From Thermodesulfobacteriota bacterium (lineage in GTDB: Bacteria > Desulfobacterota_D > UBA1144 > Nemesobacterales > Nemesobacteraceae): 64,000 nucleotides of DNA. This document shows, piece after piece, positions 7,706-44,278 of this stretch (its first letter is position 1; the number at the start of each line of letters is the position of its first letter). The notes below the pieces were generated by a model. That model was not told the DNA's origin, made no database searches, and was given only the letters and a program-made list of their open reading frames with translations. The stretch spans positions 20,796 to 84,795 of the forward strand of contig CBDAUE010000004.1 in NCBI GenBank assembly GCA_965200595.1, read 5' to 3'. Position numbers and translations under genes: made by a program.

Positions 7706-8437
7706 ATGAGCATATGGGGGACAATAATCGGCGGCGCTGCGGGCTTTGCTCTAGGCGGTCCCATAGGAGCGCTGCTGGGAGCCATGGCGGGCCATGCGAT
7801 TGTCGGTACCGGCAAACGGCCGACCGACAAGCGCTCGAGAAAGCAGGTTGCCTTCACGGCCGGAGTCATAGTGCTGGCGGCCAAAATGGCTAAAGCCGAC
7901 GGGGTAGTGAGCAAAGAGGAAATCCTGGCCTTCCGAGAGGTGTTTCATCCGATCCTGAGAGACGAAGTAAAAGAAGCCGAGGTAGCCCGCATCTTCGATA
8001 TCGCCAAGAAAGACCCGGAAGGTTTTGAGTCCTACGCACAGCAGCTTGCCGAGATGTTCAGAGACAACCCCATGGTTCTTGAGGAACTTTTAAACTGTCT
8101 GTTCCTCATTGCCAAGTCCGATAATGTCTACCATCCCAAGGAAAACGAGTATCTTGAGAGCATAGCAAAGATATTCGGACTGAACGAAGCGGCGTTTAGG
8201 CGCATCCGCGCCGCACACGGCGTCGACAAGCCGGATCCGTATCTCATTCTGGGAGTGACAAGAGACATCTCCGATCGCGGACTTAAAAGCAAGTACCGCG
8301 AACTTGTCCGCGCACATCATCCGGACAACCTGATCGCCCAAGGTGTTCCCCAGGAGTTTATTGACACGGCAAACGATAAACTCGCGGTCATAAACGATGC
8401 CTACGACCGAATTGAGAAGGAACGAAAGACGGTCTGA
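7706..8437 (+). CDS. djlA: DjlA-like co-chaperone: N-terminal glycine-rich TM segment, TerB-like middle domain and C-terminal J domain.
   Basis: C-terminal DPYLILGVTRDISDRGLKSKYRELVRAHHPDNL (J domain, HPD motif). N-terminus GGAAGFALGGPIGALLGAMAG. Confidence 0.7.
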   Translation: MSIWGTIIGGAAGFALGGPIGALLGAMAGHAIVGTGKRPTDKRSRKQVAFTAGVIVLAAKMAKADGVVSKEEILAFREVFHPILRDEVKEAEVARIFDIAKKDPEGFESYAQQLAEMFRDNPMVLEELLNCLFLIAKSDNVYHPKENEYLESIAKIFGLNEAAFRRIRAAHGVDKPDPYLILGVTRDISDRGLKSKYRELVRAHHPDNLIAQGVPQEFIDTANDKLAVINDAYDRIEKERKTV

Positions 8438-8785
8438 TTCATTTGAGAACAGGAACGATGCCGGTTTTTACAGCGGCTTCAAGAATTATTTCCTGACTGA
8501 GCATGGGAAGTAATATTGAGGAAGATTCTTAAACTGAATGTGAAGAACTGAAAAACGCCTGCAAATTGGCCGCAAACGGCGTTATAAATTTCCCGAGCGG
8601 CAAAACAAACAATCAAGGCGCTCAGTGAGCGGGATGCGATGGAATCGAATTCAGAACCCTTAGAAAATCCAACCTTTATACAGGCTCAATTGTCGGTACT
8701 GTCCGCTTCCATTTAACCGCAGCTACAAAGCGCCTTTGATTGCTGGTATTTGTGCGCTATATGCCAGTGCAACTGCCCGGAATCT

Positions 8786-9088
8786 TTATTTCTTCTCTTT
8801 GTGCTTTTCTTTCTTGGCAGCCCAGGCATTCTTTACTTCTTCCTTTGTGAGATTGCCATCGCCATCAGCATCCATCTTGGCGAATTTCTCCTCCACGTGG
8901 GCCATAAACTCGGCTTTTGAGATAACACCATCTGAGTTTGCATCTTTTTTCTCAAACATCTTATCCATTTTAGCAGCCTTTCCGGGGCAATCTCTTTTCT
9001 CATCACAAGACCCGCAGTCTGCCGAGGCAACCGTCGCTCCTCCGATGAACAAAACCGCCAATATAGAAAACATAAATATCTTTCTCAT
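8786..9088 (-). CDS. Secreted EF-hand calcium-binding protein.
   Basis: Signal peptide MRKIFMFSILAVLFIGGATVASA. Two EF-hand loops: DANSDGVISKAEF and DADGDGNLTKEEV. Confidence 0.7.
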   Translation of the reverse strand: MRKIFMFSILAVLFIGGATVASADCGSCDEKRDCPGKAAKMDKMFEKKDANSDGVISKAEFMAHVEEKFAKMDADGDGNLTKEEVKNAWAAKKEKHKEKK

Positions 9089-9246
9089 TACACACCTCCA
9101 TGTGGTTTATAATTTCAGAGTTAGTTTACAGTTTATACCAATTAAAAAGCAAGACGGAAAACCTTGCGTGCTATGATTCCGTTTCCCCTTAACGCTTTTG
9201 ATTCAGGCTTTTTCATACATTATGAGGATTGGGGACGGACCTGAAC

Positions 9247-10567
9247 AGAAGTGGACCCCAAAAATCAGACAGCACCTTAAGTGTATTTCCTTGGTATTCT
9301 AAAAGAGTATACAGGAGGTACATAATGAAGAGTAAAAGACGTAATCATTCACCGCAGTTCAAGGCAAAGGTAGCGTTTTTGGCGGTAAAAGGAGACAAGA
9401 CAGTAGCGGAGCTTGCCCGGCAGTTTGAGGTTCATCCCAATCAGATAAGCATGTGGAAGAAGAAGCAGCTCGGCAACGCCGCGGACAAAGTGTTCGGCCA
9501 GGGGGCGGGCAGCAAGGCGGCGGGCGAGAGCAAGTACGTAAACCAGCTTGAATCCAAGGTGGGCCAGCTGACGCTGGAGAACGATTTTTTATCAAAGGCG
9601 CTCGGTCGGCAGCGGCGCAAGAAGTTGGTAGTGCGCGGCCGGGCACTTTCTTTGGTAAGGCAGTGCAAACTGCTGGATATAAATCGCTCAAATATTTACT
9701 ACAAACCTGTGGGGGTATCCCCGCAGGACGAAGAGATTATGAAGAAGATTGACAGGATCTACATTAAGTATCCGTTTAAGGGTTCAAGAAGGATGGTGTA
9801 CGCCCTTAAGGCACAGGGCGTACAGGTGGGCAGAAAGCGTGTTATGAGGCTTATGGGGATACGAGGGCTTGCTCCCGGCCCCCAGACTACAAAGAAAGGG
9901 GGAGCAGAGCACAGGATATACCCGTATCTGCTGCGGGGGAAGACTGTAGAGCTTCCCGGGCAGGTATGGGCGGCAGACATAACGTATATAGAGATGAGCA
10001 GGGGTTTTGTGTATCTGTGTGCGGTAATGGACTGGCACTCGCGCAAGGTTCTTAGCTGGAGAGTGTCTAACACAATGGACAGCAGTTTTTGCGTGGAGGC
10101 TCTGGAAGAAGCGCTTTACAAGTATGATAAGCCCGAGATATTCAACACCGATCAAGGAAGCCAGTTCACAAGTGAAGAGTTTACGGGAGTTCTTAAAGAC
10201 AGAGATATAAAGATAAGCATGGACGGCAAGGGAAGCTGGAGAGACAATGTTTTTGTGGAGAGGCTTTGGAGAAGTGTTAAGTACGAGGAAGTGTATCTGA
10301 TGGCCTATGAATCTGTTGCCTCTGCAAAGGCTGGTATAGGGAAGTGGATAGATTTTTACAATGAAAAAAGACCACATCAGGGGCTTGGAATGAAAACACC
10401 GGATGAGGTTTACTATGGTCTTGGGACAGCACAGAAGAATGTGGCTTGAAGCAATGAGACAAACAGAGCAGAGAGTTTATGGTTTTGGGAGTCTTAAAGA
10501 TGGTTATGCGTTGGTAGGAATACACTTAAGAAAACAAAAATGCTGTCTAAAAAAGGGGACCACCTCT
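9247..10567 (+). mobile_element. IS3-family insertion sequence, copy 1 (1.32 kb). This is an intact simple insertion.
   Basis: Imperfect terminal IRs: AGAAGTGGACCCCAAAAATCAGACAGCA on the left, and the reverse complement of the right end is AGAGGTGGTCCCCTTTTTTAGACAGCA. A 3-bp direct repeat AAC lies at 9244-9246 and 10568-10570. The same element occurs four times in the window. Confidence 0.9.
9325..10449 (+). CDS. IS3-family transposase, with OrfA-like HTH/leucine-zipper and OrfB rve DDE domains in one continuous 374-aa frame.
   Basis: MKSKRRNHSPQFKAKVAFLAVKGDKTVAELARQFEVHPNQISMWKKKQ... then ...WAADITYIEMSRGFVYLCAVMDWHSRKVLSW...NTDQGSQFTSEEF...RLWRSVKYEE. The track ORF starts at 9229, but that is outside the IS; the ATG at 9325 with RBS GGAGG matches the other copies. 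Confidence 0.9.
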   Translation: MKSKRRNHSPQFKAKVAFLAVKGDKTVAELARQFEVHPNQISMWKKKQLGNAADKVFGQGAGSKAAGESKYVNQLESKVGQLTLENDFLSKALGRQRRKKLVVRGRALSLVRQCKLLDINRSNIYYKPVGVSPQDEEIMKKIDRIYIKYPFKGSRRMVYALKAQGVQVGRKRVMRLMGIRGLAPGPQTTKKGGAEHRIYPYLLRGKTVELPGQVWAADITYIEMSRGFVYLCAVMDWHSRKVLSWRVSNTMDSSFCVEALEEALYKYDKPEIFNTDQGSQFTSEEFTGVLKDRDIKISMDGKGSWRDNVFVERLWRSVKYEEVYLMAYESVASAKAGIGKWIDFYNEKRPHQGLGMKTPDEVYYGLGTAQKNVA

Positions 10568-10754
10568 AACAGTGTTTGTCGGTTTCTGAATATACACCGT
10601 CGCATACTTCCTTAATTTAGCGAAAAATGGCCTGGCAAGGTTGTTTTTACCCGGCCAGAAAGTTTTTTTCGGGCTGTTTGCCTAGACCAGATTCATTTCT
10701 TAAGCCCAGACCTGCCCGGTCTTACGCCCGTACCAATCAGTTAGAATTAGCCTA

Positions 10755-11969
10755 ATGAATACGCTTCTTTTGATCGATATATCATACAGGGCGATAAGGA
10801 GCAACAAGGTAAGATCGTTTCTCACCACCCTAGGCATAATCATAGGCGTTGCGGCCGTGATTTCACTGGTGTCCATAACCGGAGGAGCCAAAAACATGAT
10901 AGAGGGCCAGCTTTTGTCTCTCGGCGCTAACTCGCTTGTGATTAAAAGCGGAAAGATAACCAAGAGCGGAAAAACCAACGTTGCCGGGAACATAAAACCC
11001 TTTACCGGAAAGGATGTCGAGGCAATAAAGAGGATAGAGGCTGCAAAGTACGTCTCGGCAATATCGAACACCACAGGGAATGTGGTTTCGGGAAACAGAA
11101 ACGTCTTCACGGCATTGGTCGGAGTAGGAAAAGACTTTATCTTCATAAACGACTGGTTCCCCCAGCAAGGTACATTCTTTAACGATCTTGACGTGAGAGA
11201 AGCATCCCTTGTCTGCGTTTTGGGAGAAACCGTAAAAAACAATCTGTTCGGAAGCCAGAATCCGTTAGGGAAAAATGTCAGGATCGACAGGTACACCTAC
11301 AGGGTTATCGGGGTAATGTCTCCGATAGGCCCCACCCCGAGCGGGAAGGATCAGGACGACATAATACTGCTGCCATACACTTCCGTTCAGAAAAGAATCG
11401 TCGGTGCAAAGTCGCTTAACAGAATCACGGTTTTCGCAGACCCCGCCTACGATCTTTACTACGCCAAGGAACAAATTGAGAAAACCCTGCGCCGCACACA
11501 CGGAATAAAGGACGGAATGGATGATGATTTTTTTGTCAGAACCCAGCAGAACCAGATAAACACCATTAAAAATGTTTCAAGAATCCTAACCGTGCTCCTC
11601 GGAAGCATAGCATCAATCTCGCTTGTGGTCGGAGGAATCGGAATAATGAATATAATGCTGGTTTCGGTCGGGGAGAGAACAAGGGAGATAGGAATTCGGC
11701 TCGCGGTAGGAGCTAAGGAGAAAAGCATACTGGTACAGTTTCTGATTGAATCGGTTCTGCTGTCTCTTGTCGGGGGTGCGGCAGGAACAGTATTGGGAAT
11801 ACTGATCTCAAAGATTGCCTCGGCTTTTACTGGCTGGCCGACCCAGATATCAGTGTTATCCATACTGGTGGCTTTTCTGTTCTCGGCCGTAGTTGGAATC
11901 GTCTTTGGGATATATCCGGCAAAAAAAGCAGCTGCGCTTAATCCAATAGACGCCTTGAGGTATGAATAA
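10755..11969 (+). CDS. MacB/FtsX-type ABC transporter permease (MacB periplasmic domain plus FtsX C-terminal TM bundle). No cognate ATPase gene is adjacent.
   Basis: N-terminus MNTLLLIDISYRAIRSNKVRSFLTTLGIIIGVAAVISLVSI, and the four-TM C-terminus with IRLAVGA, are typical of MacB/LolE-type permeases. Confidence 0.8.
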   Translation: MNTLLLIDISYRAIRSNKVRSFLTTLGIIIGVAAVISLVSITGGAKNMIEGQLLSLGANSLVIKSGKITKSGKTNVAGNIKPFTGKDVEAIKRIEAAKYVSAISNTTGNVVSGNRNVFTALVGVGKDFIFINDWFPQQGTFFNDLDVREASLVCVLGETVKNNLFGSQNPLGKNVRIDRYTYRVIGVMSPIGPTPSGKDQDDIILLPYTSVQKRIVGAKSLNRITVFADPAYDLYYAKEQIEKTLRRTHGIKDGMDDDFFVRTQQNQINTIKNVSRILTVLLGSIASISLVVGGIGIMNIMLVSVGERTREIGIRLAVGAKEKSILVQFLIESVLLSLVGGAAGTVLGILISKIASAFTGWPTQISVLSILVAFLFSAVVGIVFGIYPAKKAAALNPIDALRYE

Positions 11970-12068
11970 AGAAGACCAAGGCTTGATTTTCGCTCTGCCA
12001 TATGTGAATTCCTTAGAGTTGCTCCGCAGACTGAATTCATAATATTCGTCTTCAGAAAGATCTGGAAA

Positions 12069-12488
12069 ATGAAAAAAATTTTCTTTTTATTTTGCTTTTT
12101 TCTCACATTCTCGGTTTTTTCCTACGCAAAAGAAGAAACTTATAAGACATACACCGATATAGGAGAAGTCGAGAAACCGTCTTTAACCATCTCTGAAGTC
12201 ATTTCTTCTGCAGACAAGTTTCACAAAGCAAAAATCATCCTTGAAGGGCAGGTAGGAAAACTGGAATTCAAAGAAATGGGGAACGGAAGAAAATTCACCT
12301 TGTTTCAGCTTTTTGAAGACAGTCCGGAGAAAAGAATAAATGTTTACGCAAGGGGATTTGTGGAAGGAATAGAGGAAGGCAGCAAGATAAGGATCAGAGG
12401 ACGTTACAGCAAACACAAAAGATACTTCCTGATAAAACGCAAGAACATAATGAAAGCACACAAAATACAGTTTCTTTACGACAAGTGA
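12069..12488 (+). CDS. Hypothetical secreted protein (139 aa).
   Basis: Signal peptide MKKIFFLFCFFLTFSVFSYA. No recognisable motifs. Confidence 0.45.
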   Translation: MKKIFFLFCFFLTFSVFSYAKEETYKTYTDIGEVEKPSLTISEVISSADKFHKAKIILEGQVGKLEFKEMGNGRKFTLFQLFEDSPEKRINVYARGFVEGIEEGSKIRIRGRYSKHKRYFLIKRKNIMKAHKIQFLYDK

Positions 12489-12970: not shown

Positions 12971-14128
12971 TTATGTGACGCAAACCTCAATGCTGTCAAT
13001 TATCCTCTCCACCCTTTTTTCCCAAGTGTACTCCGCCGCATCCAACTTAACTGTTTTGGATATCCGCTCACAAAGCCTCTGGTCACTCAACACAAGCCCA
13101 AGAGCCTGAAAAAACTCGTCATCATTGTCGGGGGGGACCAAGACAGAGTTTTCTCCGTGTCTGAGTATTTCAAGAACCGACGGGACTGCGGTTGCAACTA
13201 TAGGCTTTGCGGCGGCCATATATTCAAAAAGCTTAAGCGGAGACGTGAACTCGCTTGCCTCGGTTCCATCTCTTATGGTCACACCGGACGAATAGGGCAT
13301 AACCAGAATATCTGAGCATCGAAGGTAGTCTGAAACTTCTCGCTGCGGTACAAACCCCTCCATTCTGAAATTTCCCACTCCCGAATCTCCAGCCATTTCG
13401 CGCCACAGCAGATTATCCCTCTCTCTGCCCCCTACAACAAGAAACTGGACATCCGGCATTCGGGCTGCAGCACGGACAAGAAGTTCAAGTCCCCTGCCCC
13501 TGTATGTGTTTCCGCAGTAACAGACTATTTTCTTCCCGAGAGGAAGACCCAGGTTCTTTCGCAATGAGGACAAATCATATTTTTCTTCCAGTGTTTTCCG
13601 CTCAACGCCGTTTGGCGCCACAAAAGGGTTTTGTCCGGCTATGCCCAGATTGGAGTATATCCTGCGAAGTCCGTCCGAGTTAAAGGACATTCCAATCAGA
13701 TTAGGAGAATGGGAAAAAGATCCTATTATTTCTGCAGCCAGCCTGTTCACCGGTGGATGGTGAGCATCATAAACGGTCGGAATACCAAAAACCTTCGTAG
13801 AGAAATAAGAAAAAATAAGATCTCTTGTAAGAACGAAATCGTAGTCTTTTCTTTTTTTTCTGGCGTAAAATGCGCTCAGCAGTCCATGCAGAGGACGTCG
13901 GGCAGGTCCACCGGCAATTGGAATTGAGGAGACTTGGAAGTCGGTGGTTATGTCGTAATATTCAAAGAGTTTTTCTTTTTCTACTCGTCCAGGCAGAACG
14001 CACTCCACCGAAATTCCGAGATTTGCCATTGCCTGGCACATCTTAAGAATGTGGATAGCACTCGCCCCTTTGGTAAAAAGCGGGTGATTCCCAACGTAAA
14101 GAGCCCTAAGTCCTGCGTATCTTTCCAT
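12971..14128 (-). CDS. Glycosyltransferase family 4.
   Basis: GT4 C-terminal motif region: VMPYSSGVTIRDGTEASEFTSPLKLFEYMAAAKPIVAT (E-x7-E type). Confidence 0.8.
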   Translation of the reverse strand: MERYAGLRALYVGNHPLFTKGASAIHILKMCQAMANLGISVECVLPGRVEKEKLFEYYDITTDFQVSSIPIAGGPARRPLHGLLSAFYARKKRKDYDFVLTRDLIFSYFSTKVFGIPTVYDAHHPPVNRLAAEIIGSFSHSPNLIGMSFNSDGLRRIYSNLGIAGQNPFVAPNGVERKTLEEKYDLSSLRKNLGLPLGKKIVCYCGNTYRGRGLELLVRAAARMPDVQFLVVGGRERDNLLWREMAGDSGVGNFRMEGFVPQREVSDYLRCSDILVMPYSSGVTIRDGTEASEFTSPLKLFEYMAAAKPIVATAVPSVLEILRHGENSVLVPPDNDDEFFQALGLVLSDQRLCERISKTVKLDAAEYTWEKRVERIIDSIEVCVT

Positions 14129-14410
14129 GCGTGATGAAACTTTATTCCCCAGTTCCCAGATTTACAGCCCCTACAGACATGCGGGAGAAAAACTTGCCTG
14201 CAGAGTGGAGGATGTGGATTTGCAAGTGAACGCGGCGTTATTCTAACCTTAGCACTGAAGATTCTTAAATCCAAACCCGCCTATAATTTCGGCTGTCCAG
14301 TAAAAATACATTTTAAATCGTGGTTTCAATACGAGTTACGCCTTTTTACAAAAGAATTTTCGAATCAGTCCGCGCTGATATAAATAGACCCGTGGAAAAA
14401 CTGCGCCTAG

Positions 14411-15589: not shown

Positions 15590-16523
15590 CACATACATCG
15601 TCTCCGAGAAAACCCGCTCTCAAGACCGGGAGACTGTCCCACGAAATCCAGAAGACAAACGCCGCAAGCCACTGCGGAAAGGGGGTTCCCAAAACAATCC
15701 CGAAACCCAACAACATGAAAAACAGGCCCGGAACTATAACTCTTCTCAGATGCTTGTTAACCAGAGCCAAAGGCGCACAGCATTCAAGCAATACTTTTAA
15801 GCCCGCCAAAACAGAACACAGCCAGACCTTGCTACCTAACCAGAAGGGCAGAAATTCTATTAGCGGGTCTGCCCTGTCACCCGCAAGCCCTTTGTTTGTG
15901 AACAAAGTCGCCATGTATTCAGAAGTAACCCACTCAAGACCTGAGTTTCTAAGCTTCGACAAGCCAGCCGCGCAGAAAACCAAAGTTATCACTACCCAGA
16001 TCAACCTTACAGGCCATTGATACGCGGAGCTTGCCCTTATTGCGCTCTGCCCAAACGGCCACCACCTGCACCTTTGCTTAAACGCGGCATCTAGCGAAAA
16101 ACCGTCGCCGCAGGAAGAAAAACACATAACACAGAATATGACGAGCATAAGCGATTCCATATGATGTGTTTTCGCGAAACTGTTTTCCATGCCAAGCAGG
16201 TAAAAACCCACCGTAAAAGAGCAAATAACACTGATACGCGTAAAAAGTCCGAAAGCACTTAACAGAAGGCTTGCAATCCACAAAAACCCCAAGAATCCAA
16301 GAATGTTCTCTGAGAAAACCGGTATATGGAAAAAATCGAAGATAAATATTGGATGCCAGAGAACATCGGGGACTTTGGACCACTGGGAAAAATCTTTTCC
16401 CAGGTAAAGACAGAAAATAATCCCGTAGAACGCAGATCTGCATATTCCCAGATTCTGAGGGGAGCGCTCTGTAAAGAAAAAATTTAAAAAAACTGAATTA
16501 AATCTTCTGAAACTATTTTTCAT
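15576..16523 (-). CDS. Polytopic membrane protein, possibly HTTM-domain (vitamin-K-carboxylase-like) family.
   Basis: Multiple TM helices. LGICRSAFYGIIFCLYLG and KTHHMESLMLVIF resemble HTTM conserved blocks. This is an inference from memory of the family. Confidence 0.45.
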   Translation of the reverse strand: MKNSFRRFNSVFLNFFFTERSPQNLGICRSAFYGIIFCLYLGKDFSQWSKVPDVLWHPIFIFDFFHIPVFSENILGFLGFLWIASLLLSAFGLFTRISVICSFTVGFYLLGMENSFAKTHHMESLMLVIFCVMCFSSCGDGFSLDAAFKQRCRWWPFGQSAIRASSAYQWPVRLIWVVITLVFCAAGLSKLRNSGLEWVTSEYMATLFTNKGLAGDRADPLIEFLPFWLGSKVWLCSVLAGLKVLLECCAPLALVNKHLRRVIVPGLFFMLLGFGIVLGTPFPQWLAAFVFWISWDSLPVLRAGFLGDDVCVKSG

Positions 16524-16631
16524 TGCTTAGAAAATCCGTATTCAGATGAATAAACCAGCGTGGTATCAGCAAGGACTTCCTGCGGCGGTGTATTGGTCCA
16601 ATCCCACTTGGCGGAGTAAAGATTCATGGAC

Positions 16632-17953
16632 AGAGGTGGTCCCCTTTTTTAGACAGCATTTTTGTTTTCTTAAGTGTATTCCCACCAACGCATAACCATC
16701 TTTAAGACTCCCAAAACCATAAACTCTCTGCTCTGTTTGTCTCATTGCTTCAAGCCACATTCTTCTGTGCTGTCCCAAGACCATAGTAAACCTCATCCGG
16801 TGTTTTCATTCCAAGCCCCTGATGTGGTCTTTTTTCATTGTAAAAATCTATCCACTTCCCTATACCTGCCTTTGCCGAGGCAACGGATTCATATGCCATC
16901 AGATACACTTCCTCGTACTTAACACTTCTCCAAAGCCTCTCCACAAAAACATTGTCTCTCCAGCTTCCCTTGCCGTCCATGCTTATCTTTATATCTCTGT
17001 CTTTAAGAACTCCCGTAAACTCTTCACTTGTGAACTGACTTCCTTGATCGGTGTTGAATATCTCGGGCTTATCATACTTGTAAAGCGCTTCTTCCAGAGC
17101 CTCCACGCCAAAAACTGCTGTCCATTGTGTTAGACACTCTCCAGCTAAGAACCTTGCGCGAGTGCCAGTCCATTACCGCACACAGATACACAAAACCCCT
17201 GCTCATCTCTATATACGTTATGTCTGCCGCCCATACCTGCCCGGGAAGCTCTACAGTCTTCCCCCGCAGCAGATACGGGTATATCCTGTGCTCTGCTCCC
17301 CCTTTCTTTGTAGTCTGGGGGCCGGGAGCAAGCCCTCGTATCCCCATAAGCCTCATAACACGCTTTCTGCCCACCTGTACGCCCTGTGCCTTAAGGGCGT
17401 ACACCATCCTTCTTGAACCCTTAAACGGATACTTAATGTAGATCCTGTCAATCTTCTTCATAATCTCTTCGTCCTGCGGGGATACCCCCACAGGTTTGTA
17501 GTAAATATTTGAGCGATTTATATCCAGCAGTTTGCACTGCCTTACCAAAGAAAGTGCCCGGCCGCGCACTACCAACTTCTTGCGCCGCTGCCGACCGAGC
17601 GCCTTTGATAAAAAATCGTTCTCCAGCGTCAGCTGGCCCACCTTGGATTCAAGCTGGTTTACGTACTTGCTCTCGCCCGCCGCCTTGCTGCCCGCCCCCT
17701 GGCCGAACACTTTGTCCGCGGCGTTGCCGAGCTGCTTCTTCTTCCACATGCTTATCTGATTGGGATGAACCTCAAACTGCCGGGCAAGCTCCGCTACTGT
17801 CTTGTCTCCTTTTACCGCCAAAAACGCTACCTTTGCCTTGAACTGCGGTGAATGATTACGTCTTTTACTCTTCATTATGTACCTCCTGTATACTCTTTTA
17901 GAATACCAAGGAAATACACTTAAGATGCTGTCTGATTTTTGGGGTCCACTTCT
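16632..17953 (-). mobile_element. IS3-family insertion sequence, copy 2, in inverted orientation. Its transposase is frameshifted.
   Basis: It has the same termini as copy 1: CCACTTCT at 17946-17953 and AGAGGTGG at 16632-16639. There is no target-site duplication (flanks GAC and CTT). Confidence 0.85.
16750..17875 (-). pseudogene. IS3-family transposase, frameshifted copy. The ORF track splits it into 267-aa and 118-aa pieces.
   Basis: Near-identical to the 374-aa transposase. The span is 1126 nt against 1125 nt in intact copies, implying a 1-nt insertion near 17072-17106. Confidence 0.8.
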
Positions 17954-35295: not shown

Positions 35296-35370
35296 GGGCG
35301 GTTAGCTCAGCGGGAGAGCACCTGCCTTACAAGCAGGGGGTCACAGGTTCGAATCCTGTACCGCCCACCA
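35296..35370 (+). tRNA. tRNA-Val (anticodon TAC).
   Basis: GGGCGGTTAGCTCAGCGGGAGAGCACCTGCCTTACAAGCAGGGGGTCACAGGTTCGAATCCTGTACCGCCCACCA. Cloverleaf with anticodon loop CTTACAA and an encoded CCA. Confidence 0.9.
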
Positions 35371-35387: not shown

Positions 35388-35465
35388 GGGGCCGTAGTTC
35401 AGCCTGGTTAGAACGCTGGCCTGTCAAGCCAGAGGTCGCGGGTTCAAATCCCGTCGGTCCCGCCA
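35388..35465 (+). tRNA. tRNA-Asp (anticodon GTC).
   Basis: GGGGCCGTAGTTCAGCCTGGTTAGAACGCTGGCCTGTCAAGCCAGAGGTCGCGGGTTCAAATCCCGTCGGTCCCGCCA. Confidence 0.9.
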
Positions 35466-38482: not shown

Positions 38483-38574
38483 GGAGAGGTGGCCGAGTGG
38501 TCGAAGGCGCTCGATTGCTAATCGAGTAAGGGGTGAAAGCCCCTTCGTGGGTTCGAATCCCACTCTCTCCGCCA
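38483..38574 (+). tRNA. tRNA-Ser (anticodon GCT), long variable arm.
   Basis: GGAGAGGTGGCCGAGTGGTCGAAGGCGCTCGATTGCTAATCGAGTAAGGGGTGAAAGCCCCTTCGTGGGTTCGAATCCCACTCTCTCCGCCA. Confidence 0.9.
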
Positions 38575-38945: not shown

Positions 38946-39158
38946 CTATTTCTTCACCTTGATTTTTCTTGAGGCTTGAAGGTCTCTGTCCGCATTGCGG
39001 AAGATTGCCTTTGCCAGTTCCTCCGGCGTTGTGTCTATGCGGGGTATCTTCCGGATCTCGGGTCTGCCTCGGGGATTTTTAATCCGGGATTTGTTCTTTT
39101 TCATGATTCTTACCCAAGGGTGTTTTTCATTCTCAGGGCAATGATAACAGCAATTCAA
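38946..39158 (-). CDS. Small ORF (70 aa) inside the IS1595 3' region. It is translationally coupled (ATGA overlap) to the transposase stop. Possible passenger, or spurious.
   Basis: Basic protein MNCCYHCPENEKHPWVRIMKKNKSRIKNPRGRPEIRKIPRIDTTPEELAKAIF. It lies inside the IS inverted repeats. Confidence 0.25.
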   Translation of the reverse strand: MNCCYHCPENEKHPWVRIMKKNKSRIKNPRGRPEIRKIPRIDTTPEELAKAIFRNADRDLQASRKIKVKK

Positions 39159-39570
39159 GATACAAGCTCTTTATAGGGAAGCTTCTTGCCAACCAACCCC
39201 TTGGCCAACAGCGCCATCTGCTCTATAGTGTCCATCTCTCTTGCATTATGCCTGCCCGCAAACTCCGTAACATAGCGGTCCAGATGTTTCTCGCTCATGT
39301 GATGGTAAGTTCCGTAGTACCCTCTGTTCAAAGCAGCCCAGAAGGATTCCACGCCGTTTACATGGGCTTTTTCTCTTACATACTCTCCCACACTGTGATT
39401 AACCGCTTCATGTCTGTAGTTCTTCTTCCCAAGACCCATATACCCCCTGTTCTGATCGGTGTATACCGTAGAACCTTCTTTCACAGCCTCCTCTACCATG
39501 CGTTGAAGTGTGATGCTCGATACCGGCCTAGTCACTTTTGCCCTGATCTTGCTGCCCCCACGCTCCTTAA
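39155..39570 (-). pseudogene. IS1595-family transposase, C-terminal fragment (DDE_Tnp_IS1595).
   Basis: ...KERGGSKIRAKVTRPVSSITLQRMVEEAVKEGSTVYTDQNRGYMGL...HEAVNHSVGEYVREKAHVNGVESFWAALNRGYYGTYHHMSEKHLDRYVTEFAGRHN is the ISXO2-like conserved core. Confidence 0.8.
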
Positions 39571-40890
39571 AGAAGTGGACCCCAAAAATCAGACAGCACC
39601 TTAAGTGTATTTCCTTGGTATTCTAAAAGAGTATACAGGAGGTACATAATGAAGAGTAAAAGACGTAATCATTCACCGCAGTTCAAGGCAAAGGTAGCGT
39701 TTTTGGCGGTAAAAGGAGACAAGACAGTAGCGGAGCTTGCCCGGCAGTTTGAGGTTCATCCCAATCAGATAAGCATGTGGAAGAAGAAGCAGCTCGGCAA
39801 CGCCGCGGACAAAGTGTTCGGCCAGGGGGCGGGCAGCAAGGCGGCGGGCGAGAGCAAGTACGTAAACCAGCTTGAATCCAAGGTGGGCCAGCTGACGCTG
39901 GAGAACGATTTTTTATCAAAGGCGCTCGGTCGGCAGCGGCGCAAGAAGTTGGTAGTGCGCGGCCGGGCACTTTCTTTGGTAAGGCAGTGCAAACTGCTGG
40001 ATATAAATCGCTCAAATATTTACTACAAACCTGTGGGGGTATCCCCGCAGGACGAAGAGATTGTGAAGAAGATTGACAGGATCTACATTAAGTATCCGTT
40101 TAAGGGTTCAAGAAGGATGGTGTACGCCCTTAAGGCACAGGGCGTACAGGTGGGCAGAAAGCGTGTTATGAGGCTTATGGGGATACGAGGGCTTGCTCCC
40201 GGCCCCCAGACTACAAAGAAAGGGGGAGCAGAGCACAGGATATACCCGTATCTGCTGCGGGGGAAGACTGTAGAGCTTCCCGGGCAGGTATGGGCGGCAG
40301 ACATAACGTATATAGAGATGAGCAGGGGTTTTGTGTATCTGTGTGCGGTAATGGACTGGCACTCGTGCAAGGTTCTTAGCTGGAGAGTGTCTAACACAAT
40401 GGACAGCAGTTTTTGCGTGGAGGCTCTGGAAGAAGCGCTTTACAAGTATGATAAGCCCGAGATATTCAACACCGATCAAGGAAGTCAGTTCACAAGTGAA
40501 GAGTTTACGGGAGTTCTTAAAGACAGAGATATAAAGATAAGCATGGACGGCAAGGGAAGCTGGAGAGACAATGTTTTTGTGGAGAGGCTTTGGAGAAGTG
40601 TTAAGTACGAGGAAGTGTATCTGATGGCATATGAATCCGTTGCCTCGGCAAAGGCAGGTATAGGGAAGTGGATAGATTTTTACAATAAAAAAAGACCACA
40701 TCAGGGGCTTGGAATGAAAACACCGGATGAGGTTTACTATGGTCTTGGGACAGCACAGAAGAATGTGGCTTGAAGCAATGAGACAGACAGAGCAGAGAGT
40801 TTATGGTTTTGGGAGTCTTAAAGATGGTTATGCGTTGGTGGGAATACACTTAAGAAAACAAAAATGCTGTCTAAAAAAGGGGACCACCTC
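39571..40890 (+). mobile_element. IS3-family insertion sequence, copy 3.
   Basis: Same IRs as the other copies. Flanks are TAA and GTC, so there is no target-site duplication. The left flank is the IS1595 fragment and the right flank is the cas9 remnant. Confidence 0.9.
39649..40773 (+). CDS. IS3-family transposase (374 aa, intact).
   Basis: Near-identical to the copy at 9325-10449. Confidence 0.9.
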   Translation: MKSKRRNHSPQFKAKVAFLAVKGDKTVAELARQFEVHPNQISMWKKKQLGNAADKVFGQGAGSKAAGESKYVNQLESKVGQLTLENDFLSKALGRQRRKKLVVRGRALSLVRQCKLLDINRSNIYYKPVGVSPQDEEIVKKIDRIYIKYPFKGSRRMVYALKAQGVQVGRKRVMRLMGIRGLAPGPQTTKKGGAEHRIYPYLLRGKTVELPGQVWAADITYIEMSRGFVYLCAVMDWHSCKVLSWRVSNTMDSSFCVEALEEALYKYDKPEIFNTDQGSQFTSEEFTGVLKDRDIKISMDGKGSWRDNVFVERLWRSVKYEEVYLMAYESVASAKAGIGKWIDFYNKKRPHQGLGMKTPDEVYYGLGTAQKNVA

Positions 40891-41124
40891 TGTCTATGCA
40901 ACCGTCATACAGACGCACTGTTGAATCCTCAAATTCAGCATTGAGTCCGTTAAAAACCACAAATTGTCTACCCGAATAGGTGATCACATAAAAATATATC
41001 TCCCCTGATTTCCAGGGAGCTTTTCTCCAGCAGGGCCTGAATCGAGTCAATGCTCTGGATAGAACCTCTGCTTGCAGCAATTGCGAGAGCCCTAGCGGAG
41101 TAATAGAGTTGACAATCTTCCTAG
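40891..41124 (-). pseudogene. cas9: Degenerate continuation of the cas9 remnant between IS1182 copy A and IS3 copy 3.
   Basis: Minus-strand frames read RAKALGRLSTLLLR(stop) and ...QLYYSARALAIAASRGSIQS. These are co-linear with Cas9 residues about 125-160 (NmeCas9 [27 protein letters not shown]; SpyCas9 LIYLALAHMIKFRG). Low complexity, so this is tentative. Confidence 0.35.
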
Positions 41125-42660
41125 GAGTCTGTCGGGCTTTAGCGGTCATTTAATGTTAAAACAACGGTATCAAGATGTCTGAGAAGGAGAAGACAATGAG
41201 ACGGAGGTTTGTATCAGCAGACCGCAAGACGCCGCAGATGTTTCCGCCTACAATAGAAGAGTATCTGCCCGAAGACCATCTTGCCCGGTTTGTGGTGGAG
41301 ATAGTTGAGCAGCTGGATCTGAGAAGGCTGACGGAAGCGTATTCGGGCAGGGGGTCGGCAGCGTATCATCCGGGAATGAAGGTGGCTCTTCTGTTCTACG
41401 GATACGCGACGGGGACATTCTCTTCCCGGAAGCTTGAGAAGGCAACATATGACAGTGTGGCGTACAGGTATATATGCGCTAACAGCAATCCGGATCATGA
41501 CAGCATAAACAGGTTCCGCAAGAGGTTTGGCAAGGAGCTTGGGGTATTGTTTGTACAGATACTGCAGATAGCGGGACAGATAGGGATGGGCACGGTGAGT
41601 GTGGATGGCACGAAGATAAAGGCTAATGCGAGCAGGCATAAGGCACTGAGCTGGAAGAGGGCAAGGAAGATAGAAAAGCAGCTGAACAAAGAAGTGAAGG
41701 AACTGATGAGACTTGCACGGGAGGCTGACAACTCTAAACTGCCAGAGGATATGAATGTTCCCGAAGAACTTCAGAGACGGGAAGCGAAGCGTGAGATACA
41801 GGAGCGGGCAAAGCACAGGTATGAGCGGGAGTCAGAAGTGTACGGGGAGAAGGTAGAGAAGCGGGAACAGTATGAGAAGCAAAGCGGGAAGAAGGCAGGA
41901 GGGAGCAGACCGAGGGATAAGGATCAGGTGAATCTTGTGGACGGAGATTCGCGGATAATGCCTTCGGGAGGGGGATTTGAGCAGGCATACAACGCTCAGG
42001 GTGCAGTGGATGTGGAGAGCAGACTTATAGTGACCAGGCATGTAACGCAGAACACAAACGACAAGCGTGAGATGGAGCCCGTGCTTGAGCAGTTAAAGGA
42101 GAATGAGCAGAGGCTTGGCAAGGCTGAGAATCTGCTTGCCGACAGCGGATATTACAGTGCAAGCAACGTTAACTTATGTGACAGGGCGGGGATAAAGCCT
42201 TATATATCCAAACGCAGGGAGAAGCACAACAGACCGTTTTGGGAGAGATTCGCACAGTGCAATGAGGAGGAGAAAGAGCCGGCAACACCGGTTGAAGACA
42301 TGCAGAGGAGGCTTGGAACATCCGCAGGCAAAAAGATGTACTCAAAACGCAAGTCAACGATAGAGCCTGTGTTCGGAATAATGAAGCAGGTGATGGGATT
42401 CCGGCAGTTTATGGTGCGGGGGCTTGAAGCTGTGCGCGGAGAGTGGAATCTTGTGTGCATAGGGTACAACCTGAAGAGAATGTATGCGTTGAAGGGCTGA
42501 CAAAGAGGTGAGAGAGCAGAGAATATTGGGGATTTGAGGTAAAAACAGCTCCCCGAAGCTTAGCTGAACCCCCAAAATCAAGGATTTTTGCCGATATGAC
42601 TTTCACCAGCTCTGAATCAGTTGGATTTCCCCTCAATTGTTCGCTAAGAGCGACAGACTC
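41125..42660 (+). mobile_element. IS1182/IS5-like insertion sequence, copy A (about 1.54 kb). It is inserted into cas9.
   Basis: Terminal IRs GAGTCTGTCGGGCTTTAGCG on the left, with GAGTCTGTCGCTCTTAGCG as the reverse complement of the right end. Flanking CTAG at 41121-41124 and CTTG at 42661-42664 form a probable 4-bp target duplication with one mismatch. A second, inverted copy is at 54730-56265. Confidence 0.85.
41175..42500 (+). CDS. IS1182-family (IS5-like) transposase with a DUF772/InsH N-terminal domain.
   Basis: EDHLARFVVEIVEQLDL...AYSGRGSAAYHPGMKVALLFYGYATGTFSSRKLEKATYDSVAYRYICANSNPDHDSINRFRKRF. 441 aa. Confidence 0.85.
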   Translation: MSEKEKTMRRRFVSADRKTPQMFPPTIEEYLPEDHLARFVVEIVEQLDLRRLTEAYSGRGSAAYHPGMKVALLFYGYATGTFSSRKLEKATYDSVAYRYICANSNPDHDSINRFRKRFGKELGVLFVQILQIAGQIGMGTVSVDGTKIKANASRHKALSWKRARKIEKQLNKEVKELMRLAREADNSKLPEDMNVPEELQRREAKREIQERAKHRYERESEVYGEKVEKREQYEKQSGKKAGGSRPRDKDQVNLVDGDSRIMPSGGGFEQAYNAQGAVDVESRLIVTRHVTQNTNDKREMEPVLEQLKENEQRLGKAENLLADSGYYSASNVNLCDRAGIKPYISKRREKHNRPFWERFAQCNEEEKEPATPVEDMQRRLGTSAGKKMYSKRKSTIEPVFGIMKQVMGFRQFMVRGLEAVRGEWNLVCIGYNLKRMYALKG

Positions 42661-43036
42661 CTTGGGCTTTTGCTCTTGCTTTTGCTTTTGCTCTTATAGT
42701 GTAGGGGTCTCCAAGTCTGTTGAGTTCTTTTTCTGGAGAGAGATTGTTTTTAAGTTCTTCAGGAAGAAAACCTTTTAGAATCAGATAATTTCTGATGCGG
42801 CCTTTACGTCTGTTGCGGCGCTGTATCTGCCTCCTCTGAAGTCGCGATTCTCTTCGTTTCCTGTTCTTTGGGGTAGAAGATTTGTCTTCAATGGACCTGA
42901 TAAATATACGGCTTCCGCAGTCAATAAATTTCACGGGTTCTTTATTCTTTTCTTCTATAACGCTCCAGCCAATCGAATTTGTTCCTACGTCAAGTCCTAT
43001 AACATATTCTGGCAATTTACATCCTTTAGTACTCAT
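42661..43036 (-). pseudogene. cas9: Cas9 N-terminal fragment (about 125 codons: RuvC-I motif plus arginine-rich bridge helix), truncated by IS1182 copy A.
   Basis: MSTKGCKLPEYVIGLDVGTNSIGWSVIEEKNKEPVKFIDCGSRIFIRSIEDKSSTPKNRKRRESRLQRRQIQRRNRRKGRIRNYLILKGFL...LGDPYTIRAKA. Compare NmeCas9 [39 protein letters not shown]...ARRLARSVRRLTRRRAHRLLRARRLLKREGVL...NTPWQLRAAAL. RBS GAGGT precedes the ATG at 43034-43036. The last 7 residues of the track ORF are IS sequence. Confidence 0.75.
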
Positions 43037-43039
43037 TTT

Positions 43040-43216
43040 CTGACCTCAGACTCTGAATTCTGGTTGCTTTTTCAGCTATGCTCTTATAGCATAACACAAG
43101 GGGTTTATAAAACTGGCTGAATGTGCCACGAATTTGCTATTCATAACAAGAAGCAAATGCTTCGTAGGCAATCTCTAAGGAGAACCAAAGGCCTCGCATC
43201 GGGGCCTTTTTTTTAG
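43040..43216 (+). ncRNA. Candidate orphan tracrRNA-like small RNA, transcribed divergently from the cas9 start and ending in an intrinsic terminator.
   Basis: A non-coding 335-nt gap lies between the cas9 start and era. Stable hairpins: CAGCTATGCT-CTTAT-AGCATA at 43073-43097, and ATTTGCT...AGCAAAT. The terminator AAAGGCCTCGCATCGGGGCCTTTTTTTT lies at about 43187-43216. The location (upstream of and antisense to cas9) matches the type II-A/II-C tracrRNA position. It is unverified without a repeat array. Confidence 0.35.
43187..43216 (+). terminator. Rho-independent terminator (GC stem, 9-nt loop, T8).
   Basis: AAAGGCC TCGCATCGG GGCCTTT followed by TTTTTTTT. An A-tract upstream makes it potentially bidirectional. 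Confidence 0.6.
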
Positions 43217-43372
43217 TTTTCCTCAGTTCCGGCAAGGTTAGCGTTTTGAGAATCAAGCTTTTATTCGGATAATGAAGATAAAGCTGTTTCGCTCTTCGGT
43301 AGTTTCAAATTTGAAAGCAGGACTTATAAAGAGCAGAATTGTCTGCAAAAAAAAGGGGAGGAGTAGTTTTTC

Positions 43373-44278
43373 ATGCCGGATGAGCACTTAAAAGATAACT
43401 TCAGATCTGGATTTATCTCCGTGATAGGACGGCCCAACGTGGGCAAATCCACCCTTGTGAACTCCATTGTCGGAGAAAAAGTTTCGGCAGTATCAGATAA
43501 GCCGAGCACTACCAGAAACAGAATCTTGGGAGTGAAGACTTTTGATGATTCCCAGCTGGTTTTTCTTGATACCCCGGGTGTCTACAGGGAGAAAAGCAGA
43601 CTTGGAAAATCCATGGCCCGAGCGGTAAACGGTGCTCTCTCAGACGCTGATCTGGTGGCATTTGTTACAGATGTTGAAAAACCTTTCGGAGCGGCTGATG
43701 AATCCATACTGAAAATGCTAAGAAAGCCCTCCTTGTTTGTTGTAAACAAGATCGACAAGATGAAAAAATCAAAACTCCTGTCGATACTTTCGGCTGCCGA
43801 GAGATTTTCCGAGAAGTTCCTCGAGATAGTTCCCATCTCGGCTCTTAACAACGACGGAGTGGAAGAGCTAACGCAGCTTTTAAAAAAACACCTACCCGAA
43901 GGGCCTAAATATTTCCCCGACGACATTTTCACGGATCAGCCTGAAATTTTCTACGTAAGCGAACTCATAAGGGAGAAGGTGTTTAACCTTACGAGAAAGG
44001 AAATTCCTTATAAAGTGGCGGTGGTGGTCTCGGGATTCAGCGAGGATGCGGAACGGAATCTGATCAGGATAAGCGCGGAAATCTATGTTGAAAGAAAAAG
44101 TCATAAGGGGATTCTTATAGGAAAGGGCGGGGCAATGCTAAAGCAGATTGGTTCTGAGGCCAGGGTTGATATTGAAAGGATTCTGGGAGTTAAGCTGTTC
44201 CTTGAGCTTTGGGTTAAGGTTAAAGAGAACTGGACTCAGAGCGATTTCCTGATAAATGAATTCGGTTACGGAAACTGA
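43373..44278 (+). CDS. era: GTPase Era.
   Basis: G1 GRPNVGKST, G3 DTPG, G4 NKID, and a C-terminal KH domain (GKGGAMLKQIG). Confidence 0.95.
   Translation: MPDEHLKDNFRSGFISVIGRPNVGKSTLVNSIVGEKVSAVSDKPSTTRNRILGVKTFDDSQLVFLDTPGVYREKSRLGKSMARAVNGALSDADLVAFVTDVEKPFGAADESILKMLRKPSLFVVNKIDKMKKSKLLSILSAAERFSEKFLEIVPISALNNDGVEELTQLLKKHLPEGPKYFPDDIFTDQPEIFYVSELIREKVFNLTRKEIPYKVAVVVSGFSEDAERNLIRISAEIYVERKSHKGILIGKGGAMLKQIGSEARVDIERILGVKLFLELWVKVKENWTQSDFLINEFGYGN

Follow-up and report, generated by a model that had tools for sequence, protein, structure and literature searches.

A probable tracrRNA gene of a destroyed type II-C CRISPR-Cas9 locus, beside a truncated cas9

A small RNA gene that lies between a cas9 remnant and era, in the 64-kb stretch of DNA analysed here (the window), is very probably the tracrRNA gene of a type II-C CRISPR-Cas9 locus that has since been destroyed. 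Its counterpart occupies the equivalent position in 16 related type II-C loci, chiefly from Ca. Dadabacteria/Thermodesulfobacteriota MAGs, and most of these loci retain cas9-cas1-cas2 together with a CRISPR array of 36-nt repeats. The assignment rests on homology, position, complementarity to the repeats of the relatives, covariation and the truncation of cas9, all of which are observed directly. In the intact relatives the RNA would be transcribed from its own promoter, divergently from cas9; its first 45-47 nt, the anti-repeat, would pair with the 36-nt repeat of each crRNA, and a nexus-like hairpin, a second hairpin and the terminator would together form the scaffold for Cas9 binding. This arrangement would have been broken up in the window, where cas9 is cut off after codon 118 beside an insertion sequence (IS), and where the 64 kb contain neither the remaining part of cas9 nor cas1, cas2 or an array. 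From the sequence we infer that the window RNA is transcribed, that its kind binds Cas9 and that it has no present function. An orphan tracrRNA divergent from the cas9 start had been proposed in a sequence-only reading of this DNA, and homology, position, anti-repeat covariation and scaffold covariation all agree with that proposal. The features concerned are collected in Table 1.

Table 1. Features of the window that bear on the tracrRNA gene, with their coordinates
Feature	Coordinates	Strand	Description and basis
IS1595-like fragment	39155-39535	-	transposase ORF
IS3-like element	inverted repeats 39600-39614 and 40840-40854		transposase ORF
Insertion sequence abutting the cas9 remnant	41120-42665	+	terminal inverted repeats 41120-41139 and 42646-42665
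cas9 remnant	42683-43036	-	codons 1-118: RuvC-I motif and arginine-rich bridge helix
Predicted tracrRNA promoter	43064-43092	+	-35 TTGCTT 43064-43069, 17-nt spacer, -10 TAGCAT 43087-43092
Hairpin of the sequence-only reading ('5' hairpin')	43073-43093	+	43077-43082 pairs with 43088-43093; in promoter spacer and -10 box
tracrRNA gene (very probable)	43100-43216	+	about 115 nt; covariance model and blastn
Anti-repeat	43102-43148	+	complementarity to relatives' repeats; orthologue covariation
Core duplex	43110-43148	+	AAACTGGCTGAATGTGCC-ACGAATTT-GCTATTCATAACA, internal unpaired bulge
Hairpin 1, 'nexus' position	43150-43163	+	GAAGC-AAAT-GCTTC, 2 nt after the anti-repeat
Hairpin 2	43165-43188	+	outer stem (T/A)GG...CC; inner stem TCTC-TAAG-GAGA
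Intrinsic terminator	43187-43214	+	stem 43187-43209, 10 pairs (6 G-C), then T8 43207-43214; terminator scan
Promoter-like site for era	43246-43273	+	TTGAGA-16-GATAAT; downstream of the tracrRNA terminator
era	43373-44278	+	ORF list, Pfam-level annotation
tRNA genes	35296-35367, 35388-35462, 38483-38571		Rfam

Limits and transcription signals of the gene

A covariance model built from five sequences matches the window at 135 bits, across the full model and at a single place within the 64 kb (43100-43216), and blastn aligns the window RNA with that of a related locus, L001 (related loci are referred to here by number), at 95.6% identity across 90 nt (E = 6e-38). The start is predicted at about 43100 ± 3 and the end at the T8 run. 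The RNA starts 63 nt before the cas9 ATG and runs divergently on the other strand, as it does in 16 of 16 relatives, which bears out the earlier placement of the RNA antisense to and upstream of cas9. The two start codons, that of the cas9-like ORF (43036, - strand) and that of era (43373), enclose a gap of 336 nt, where 335 nt had been given. An RNA of about 150-177 nt, starting at 43040, had been envisaged; its hairpins and its textbook intrinsic terminator are upheld, the latter recovered by a terminator scan, whereas its length is not, since the conserved RNA spans only about 115 nt and the first 60 nt of the proposed interval are promoter DNA outside it. The whole 177-nt stretch folds at -48.3 kcal/mol on the + strand (z = -2.2; 4 of 200 shuffles equal it) and more weakly on the - strand (z = -1.8).

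Alignment of the 75-nt segments that precede the RNAs shows a TTGnnn element, a 16-17-nt spacer and a TAnnnT element at a fixed distance from the anti-repeat in most of the 17 loci (e.g., TTGACA-17-TAGAAT in L006; TTGCTT-17-TAGTAT in L018), standing inside an otherwise poorly conserved spacer. The exceptions are L015, which has no obvious -35 element, and L016, which has TATAAT but no clear -35. It is the position of these predicted elements that puts the predicted start of the window RNA near 43100. The -10 box of the window (TAGCAT) is weaker than those of the relatives, and the tracrRNA promoter, a prediction from sequence, scores below the threshold of a generic promoter scan.

This promoter region includes the hairpin that the sequence-only reading had taken for a repeat:anti-repeat-like duplex (CAGCTATGCT/AGCATA). 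The TATGCT/AGCATA hairpin is present in the sequence (43077-43093), yet it is unconserved, the closest relative, L018, having TAGCTAGGACCGTTTAGTATA at the site and no equivalent hairpin; it overlaps the predicted -10 box, and it is complementary to no repeat. It was therefore rejected as the anti-repeat and appears to be a chance palindrome in predicted promoter DNA.

Rfam searched at gathering threshold across the whole window returned three tRNAs only and no tracrRNA family. At a permissive threshold on the gap, the tracrRNA family RF02348 gave 15.7 bits against a gathering threshold of 70 (E = 6.5; 43129-43212, + strand), a match on the right strand and in the right place but non-significant. 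The covariance-model search that had been recommended as a check thus came out negative with this type II tracrRNA model, but on grounds that have nothing to do with the identity of the RNA. RF02348 is a narrow family, and the window RNA lies outside it, though it is tracrRNA-like in its predicted working.

The RNA in related loci

A protein search with the 130-aa ORF that contains the cas9 remnant returned five short relatives only, one of them named Candidatus Dadabacteria, and these proved to be N-terminal pieces of Cas9 genes split by insertions, frameshifts or contig ends. With 43100-43216 as query, blastn matched all six of the first loci at 90-96% identity, each time immediately upstream of cas9 and on the other strand. 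Scanning genomes with the L001 Cas9 then brought in another 13 loci (L007 and L001 being one contig): 11 from MAGs labelled 'Thermodesulfobacteriota' or Spirochaetia, one from a Pseudomonadales MAG and one from a Hydrogenovibrio isolate, most of them with intact cas9-cas1-cas2 and an array. Across 17 loci the covariance model gives one strong match per locus, at 45-142 bits, in each case directly upstream of and divergent from cas9; its weaker + strand matches further downstream are the CRISPR repeats themselves.

Two gammaproteobacterial loci, L015 (Pseudomonadales MAG) and L016 (Hydrogenovibrio sp.), carry the tracrRNA family at 45-51 bits together with related repeats, although their Cas9 is only 41-44% identical; the scaffold is thus conserved across phyla. 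In L014 (Methylovulum) a weak match (22.6 bits, E = 0.14) stands at the expected place.

The anti-repeat and its cognate repeats

On the cas9 strand the repeat of L001 reads AATTTAACTGACTGAGAAAGCCCCGCTATTCACAAC and that of L002 ACTTTAACTGACTGAAAGGCCCCCGCTATCCACAAC, and the 5' part of the RNA beside these two arrays reads ACAACTGACTGAAAAAGCC-bulge-GCTATTCATAAC. In L001 the RNA (...GTTTACAACTGACTGAAAAAGCC-ACGAATTT-GCTATTCATAAC...) is the repeat sequence itself save for the central bulge and a few changes. The 5' part of the RNA is a near-copy of the cas9-strand repeat and is therefore complementary to the crRNA, which is antisense to cas9 and starts GUUGUGAAUAGC....

The anti-repeat changes together with the repeat of its own locus in 13 related loci. 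Duplexes of each RNA with its own repeat are predicted at -40 to -58 kcal/mol, and in the 13 x 13 matrix of repeats against RNAs the own repeat comes first in 8 of 13 cases and among the top four in all 13. Divergent pairs also agree with each other: CCGACTAAGG is found in repeat and RNA alike in L015, and GAAGCCTGCC likewise in both partners in L012.

As the cognate array is absent from the window, the window anti-repeat was scored against the repeats of the relatives. The core duplex region (43110-43148) pairs with them at -36 to -40.4 kcal/mol, against -20 to -23 kcal/mol for shuffled repeats (z = -5 to -6), and the best-pairing foreign repeat is that of L018, the closest relative. The sequence-only reading had set the anti-repeat at 43073-43110, and it is this pairing that moves it to 43102-43148. 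The complementary CRISPR repeat whose existence in related genomes it had proposed as a check does exist, but for the relocated segment; the upstream hairpin complements none.

Changes peculiar to the window RNA are concentrated in its 5' part: its leader differs from those of the relatives, and its anti-repeat has a 2-nt insertion and an A to G change within the nearly invariant ACTGACTG, which turns the pair into a G-U wobble and so still permits pairing. The anti-repeat changes could reflect early decay or co-evolution with an unseen repeat. A matching repeat is predicted to read near GTTGTGAATAGC...TTCAGCCAGTT. Metagenomes were scanned for repeats and anti-repeats that carry the window-specific ACTGGCTGAA, and no genuine case came up: its five single matches are chance by the covariance model (best E = 0.11), and they give no evidence for a cognate 'G-variant' repeat.

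The repeat consensuses themselves show a further regularity. In the crRNA sense, 13 of 13 (the L001 array, 16295-17394; L002; L008-L020) end in TAnnnT, with the hexamers TAAATT, TAAAAT, TAGAAT, TACAAT, TACACT and TAAAGT, so that each repeat contains what resembles a -10 box. In the type II-C arrays of Neisseria and Campylobacter each crRNA is transcribed from its own repeat-internal promoter, and the Nme and Cje repeats likewise end in a TAnnnT -10-like hexamer.

The 3' scaffold

Downstream of the anti-repeat the alignment supports four helices. In helix 1, 98.8% of cells are paired and two of the five pairs are changed on both sides (G-C to A-U in five sequences); in helices 2 and 3 the inner pairs are changed on both sides in all four cases across 16 distinct sequences; and in helix 4, the terminator, 98.2% are paired and four of the seven pairs are changed on both sides. 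Taken over the whole scaffold (16 distinct sequences; 20 pairs in four helices), pairing is kept in 92% of cells, and 11 of the 20 pairs are changed on both sides, a figure reached by none of 500 shuffles. The alignment was fitted to the covariance model and so favours the structure somewhat; the slid controls, in which pairing falls to 40-56% when the partners are shifted by 1-3 columns, nevertheless argue for the scaffold, and the compensatory change is plain in the raw alignment (GAAGC/GCTTC versus GAAAC/GTTTC).

Compared with the four closest loci, identity is 88-96% in the scaffold, 80-82% in the anti-repeat, 75-82% in the cas9 remnant and 50-70% in the promoter gap. The window scaffold differs from that of L011 at 3 of 68 aligned positions, and it carries no change that breaks a conserved pair.

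Destruction of the locus in the window

The cas9-like ORF of the window (42644-43036, - strand) encodes 130 aa, of which 118 codons are homologous to Cas9 and the tail is junk sequence. It starts MSTKGCKLPEYVIGLDVGTNSIGW..., the Cas9 RuvC-I motif, followed by the arginine-rich helix, and both tblastn and blastn place the limit of its homology to Cas9 at exactly 42683, whichever relative is compared. The frame is still open, with substitutions at otherwise invariant residues (e.g., P to S in KSPTPKN). Within the 64-kb window tblastn detected neither the rest of Cas9 (the C-terminal part of L001/L002) nor Cas1 or Cas2, the L001 repeat was absent when searched with up to 3 mismatches, and Tandem Repeats Finder reported no array-like period, which agrees with the earlier statement that the array is gone. 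Only codons 1-118 of cas9 are thus left here of the cas9, cas1, cas2 and array by which a type II-C locus is recognised. The tracrRNA is orphaned within the 64-kb window; an array or a second cas9 is possible elsewhere in the genome.

The IS that abuts the remnant encodes a 441-aa DDE transposase (41175-42500; Pfam DDE_Tnp_1 and DUF772), and its inverted-repeat end lies about 17 nt to the left of the last homologous codon. The truncated arrangement, with an identical 336-nt gap, appears in an ENA contig as well as in a Logan short-read contig for which 5 samples are listed, and the truncation is therefore real and no assembly artefact. Exactly where the IS end meets the last homologous cas9 codon there is a GCTTTT microsatellite (4.5 copies, 42666-42692), which encodes the 'AKAKARAKA' tail of the 130-aa ORF. 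Three different IS remnants cluster at 39155-42665, between the cas9 stump and the tRNA at 38483-38571, which is 89 nt long, of the long-arm type and borders the IS cluster.

The related genomes provide parallels. The locus of L001, on a 2.44-Mb chromosome, runs era, gap, cas9 N-fragment, three inserted ORFs (DUF6788, an unassigned ORF and UPF0236), the rest of cas9 (947 aa; Cas9_a, HNH_4, RuvC_III), cas1, cas2 and array. Three genomes of this group, that of the window included, have each had cas9 broken by a different mobile element, independently of one another: in the window by the DDE-transposase IS at codon 118 (42683), in L001 by the DUF6788/UPF0236 element at about codon 120 (10361-12135), and in L018 by an element with a 446-aa ORF at about codon 400 (8415-10001), with a frame change near 10972. 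A single IS common to the window and L018 was rejected, as the transposases are unrelated. These interruptions suggest a repeated loss of Cas9 immunity in this lineage. The 226 spacers of 13 related arrays gave only chance matches of 13-17 nt to the window, with no sign of self-targeting.

Two smaller irregularities of the related loci may be recorded here. In L002, assembled at 7x coverage, cas9 is spread over three ORFs (8786-11923) and the spacers are irregular, at 22-40 nt (13203-14388), probably through indel errors of a low-coverage long-read assembly and not through biology. In L001 four tandem 23-nt units (AAGTGAACACCTGTTCCGAGGGA; 17416-17530) separate the distal end of the array from an IS21-type element (rve and IstB), of which they may be multiple terminal repeats.

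With its promoter, scaffold and terminator all looking intact, the tracrRNA is probably still made, although it would be transcribed with no Cas9 or crRNA partner encoded within the window. The intact scaffold, the concentration of changes in the 5' part and the open cas9 stump suggest that the loss of the locus is recent.

Relation to known type II systems

The type II-C systems are defined by a minimal cas9-cas1-cas2 operon, and tracrRNAs are predicted as degenerate repeats outside the array, in intergenic DNA, with a promoter and a terminator, a position upstream of cas9 being one of four typical locations (PMC3737331). In the family described here the RNA combines an anti-repeat, a location beside cas9, a predicted promoter and terminator and a conserved 3' scaffold. 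The related loci have cas9-cas1-cas2, no csn2 or cas4, 36-nt repeats and 29-30-nt spacers, and the complete set of cas9, cas1, cas2 and array is present in relatives such as L008-L013, L017 and L020. Among solved structures, those nearest to the Cas9 of these relatives (1042 aa in L008) are Cas9s of 1055-1095 aa, which we take to be the type II-C Nme, Geo and Cje enzymes of Neisseria, Geobacillus and Campylobacter.

The likeness extends to the tracrRNA systems of Neisseria meningitidis, Campylobacter jejuni and Geobacillus stearothermophilus, which share with the relatives the minimal cas9-cas1-cas2 set, 36-nt repeats, spacers of about 30 nt and a repeat that begins GTTGT... in the crRNA sense, and whose RNAs likewise have a bulged 5' anti-repeat, a short hairpin a few nt further on, further hairpins and an intrinsic terminator. 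The present RNA differs from them in having no detectable sequence similarity and, in the window, in having lost its partner genes. The type II-A tracrRNA of Streptococcus pyogenes (RF02348) is also upstream of cas9 on the opposite strand, and is also built of anti-repeat, hairpins and terminator, but the window RNA falls outside that family, and the absence of csn2 from the related loci identifies them as II-C and not II-A. As in other remnant CRISPR-Cas loci disrupted by IS elements, the window cas9 is truncated beside an IS, with two further IS copies flanking; unlike in those, nuclease, adaptation genes and array have all been lost and the small-RNA gene seems to have come through intact. 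The MAGs that make up the host lineage (Ca. Dadabacteria/Thermodesulfobacteriota) are uncharacterised, and the literature searched contained no paper that treats Dadabacteria together with Cas9.

Alternative explanations

One rival reading makes the RNA a 5' leader or a regulator of era, of the attenuator or riboswitch kind, whose place beside cas9 is incidental. Strand and position suit such a role: the RNA runs in the direction of era, directly before it, and closes with the terminator expected of an attenuator; era also adjoins the RNA in L001, L008 and L009. The neighbour on the far side of the RNA is, however, an RNA methyltransferase gene (PF04452) in L003-L005 and SnoaL in L006, L012-L020 also have the RNA beside cas9 with no era adjoining, and other genes separate RNA and era in L010, L011 and L018. 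This variation means that the RNA belongs to the cas9 locus and travels with cas9, not with era; a conserved era 5' UTR, which had been named as an observation that would speak against a tracrRNA, was looked for and is not what the synteny follows. Add to this that era has a promoter-like site of its own beyond the terminator and that the 5' part of the RNA matches CRISPR repeats, and the leader reading, rejected on synteny, becomes scarcely credible. Equally improbable is that the interval is a stray degenerate repeat from the array that chance has placed before a terminator, with no RNA gene at all. The anti-repeat is formally a degenerate repeat, and descent of tracrRNAs from such repeats has been proposed (PMC3737331), but the 68 nt downstream are the best conserved of the region, with compensatory changes in three of the helices; the promoter keeps its position, and across two phyla the element keeps to one site, upstream of cas9 and some 4.5 kb or more away from the array.

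A different question is whether the tracrRNA continues to serve, together with a cas9 and array elsewhere in the genome or in a Cas9-independent role, and this we regard as unlikely, though less so than the two foregoing readings. In its favour, promoter, scaffold and terminator carry no disabling change, the scaffold being as close to that of L011 as described above, and the truncated arrangement recurs on contigs listed for several samples. Good preservation is, however, equally expected if the loss was recent; the 64 kb hold no repeat and no cas gene beyond the cas9 stump, the stump is itself substituted at otherwise invariant residues, and the metagenome scan for the window-specific G found nothing real. 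That the tracrRNA, with or without the 118-codon N-terminal Cas9 fragment, has been kept for a function in the absence of full-length Cas9 is very improbable. The arginine-rich helix, which the fragment retains, contacts the guide duplex in known Cas9s. Functions of this kind would include pairing with cellular transcripts through the altered anti-repeat, or modulation of era by read-through or transcriptional interference. Much the most probable reading of 43100-43216 is thus still that of a tracrRNA gene left over from a destroyed type II-C locus.

Implications

The window RNA counts as a commonplace remnant of a type II-C locus in decay, not as a novel class of element, and it leaves the understanding of tracrRNAs unchanged. 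It illustrates that a tracrRNA can be recognised from locus geometry alone, and the true boundaries of the RNA are now fixed. It also offers a snapshot of CRISPR-Cas9 decay, in which the small RNA gene of the window has outlived its nuclease. By way of the intact relatives, tracrRNA, repeat and crRNA orientation are defined for an undescribed clade of compact type II-C Cas9s (about 1040-1080 aa) from Dadabacteria-like MAGs, and together these are the prerequisites for the design of a single-guide RNA.
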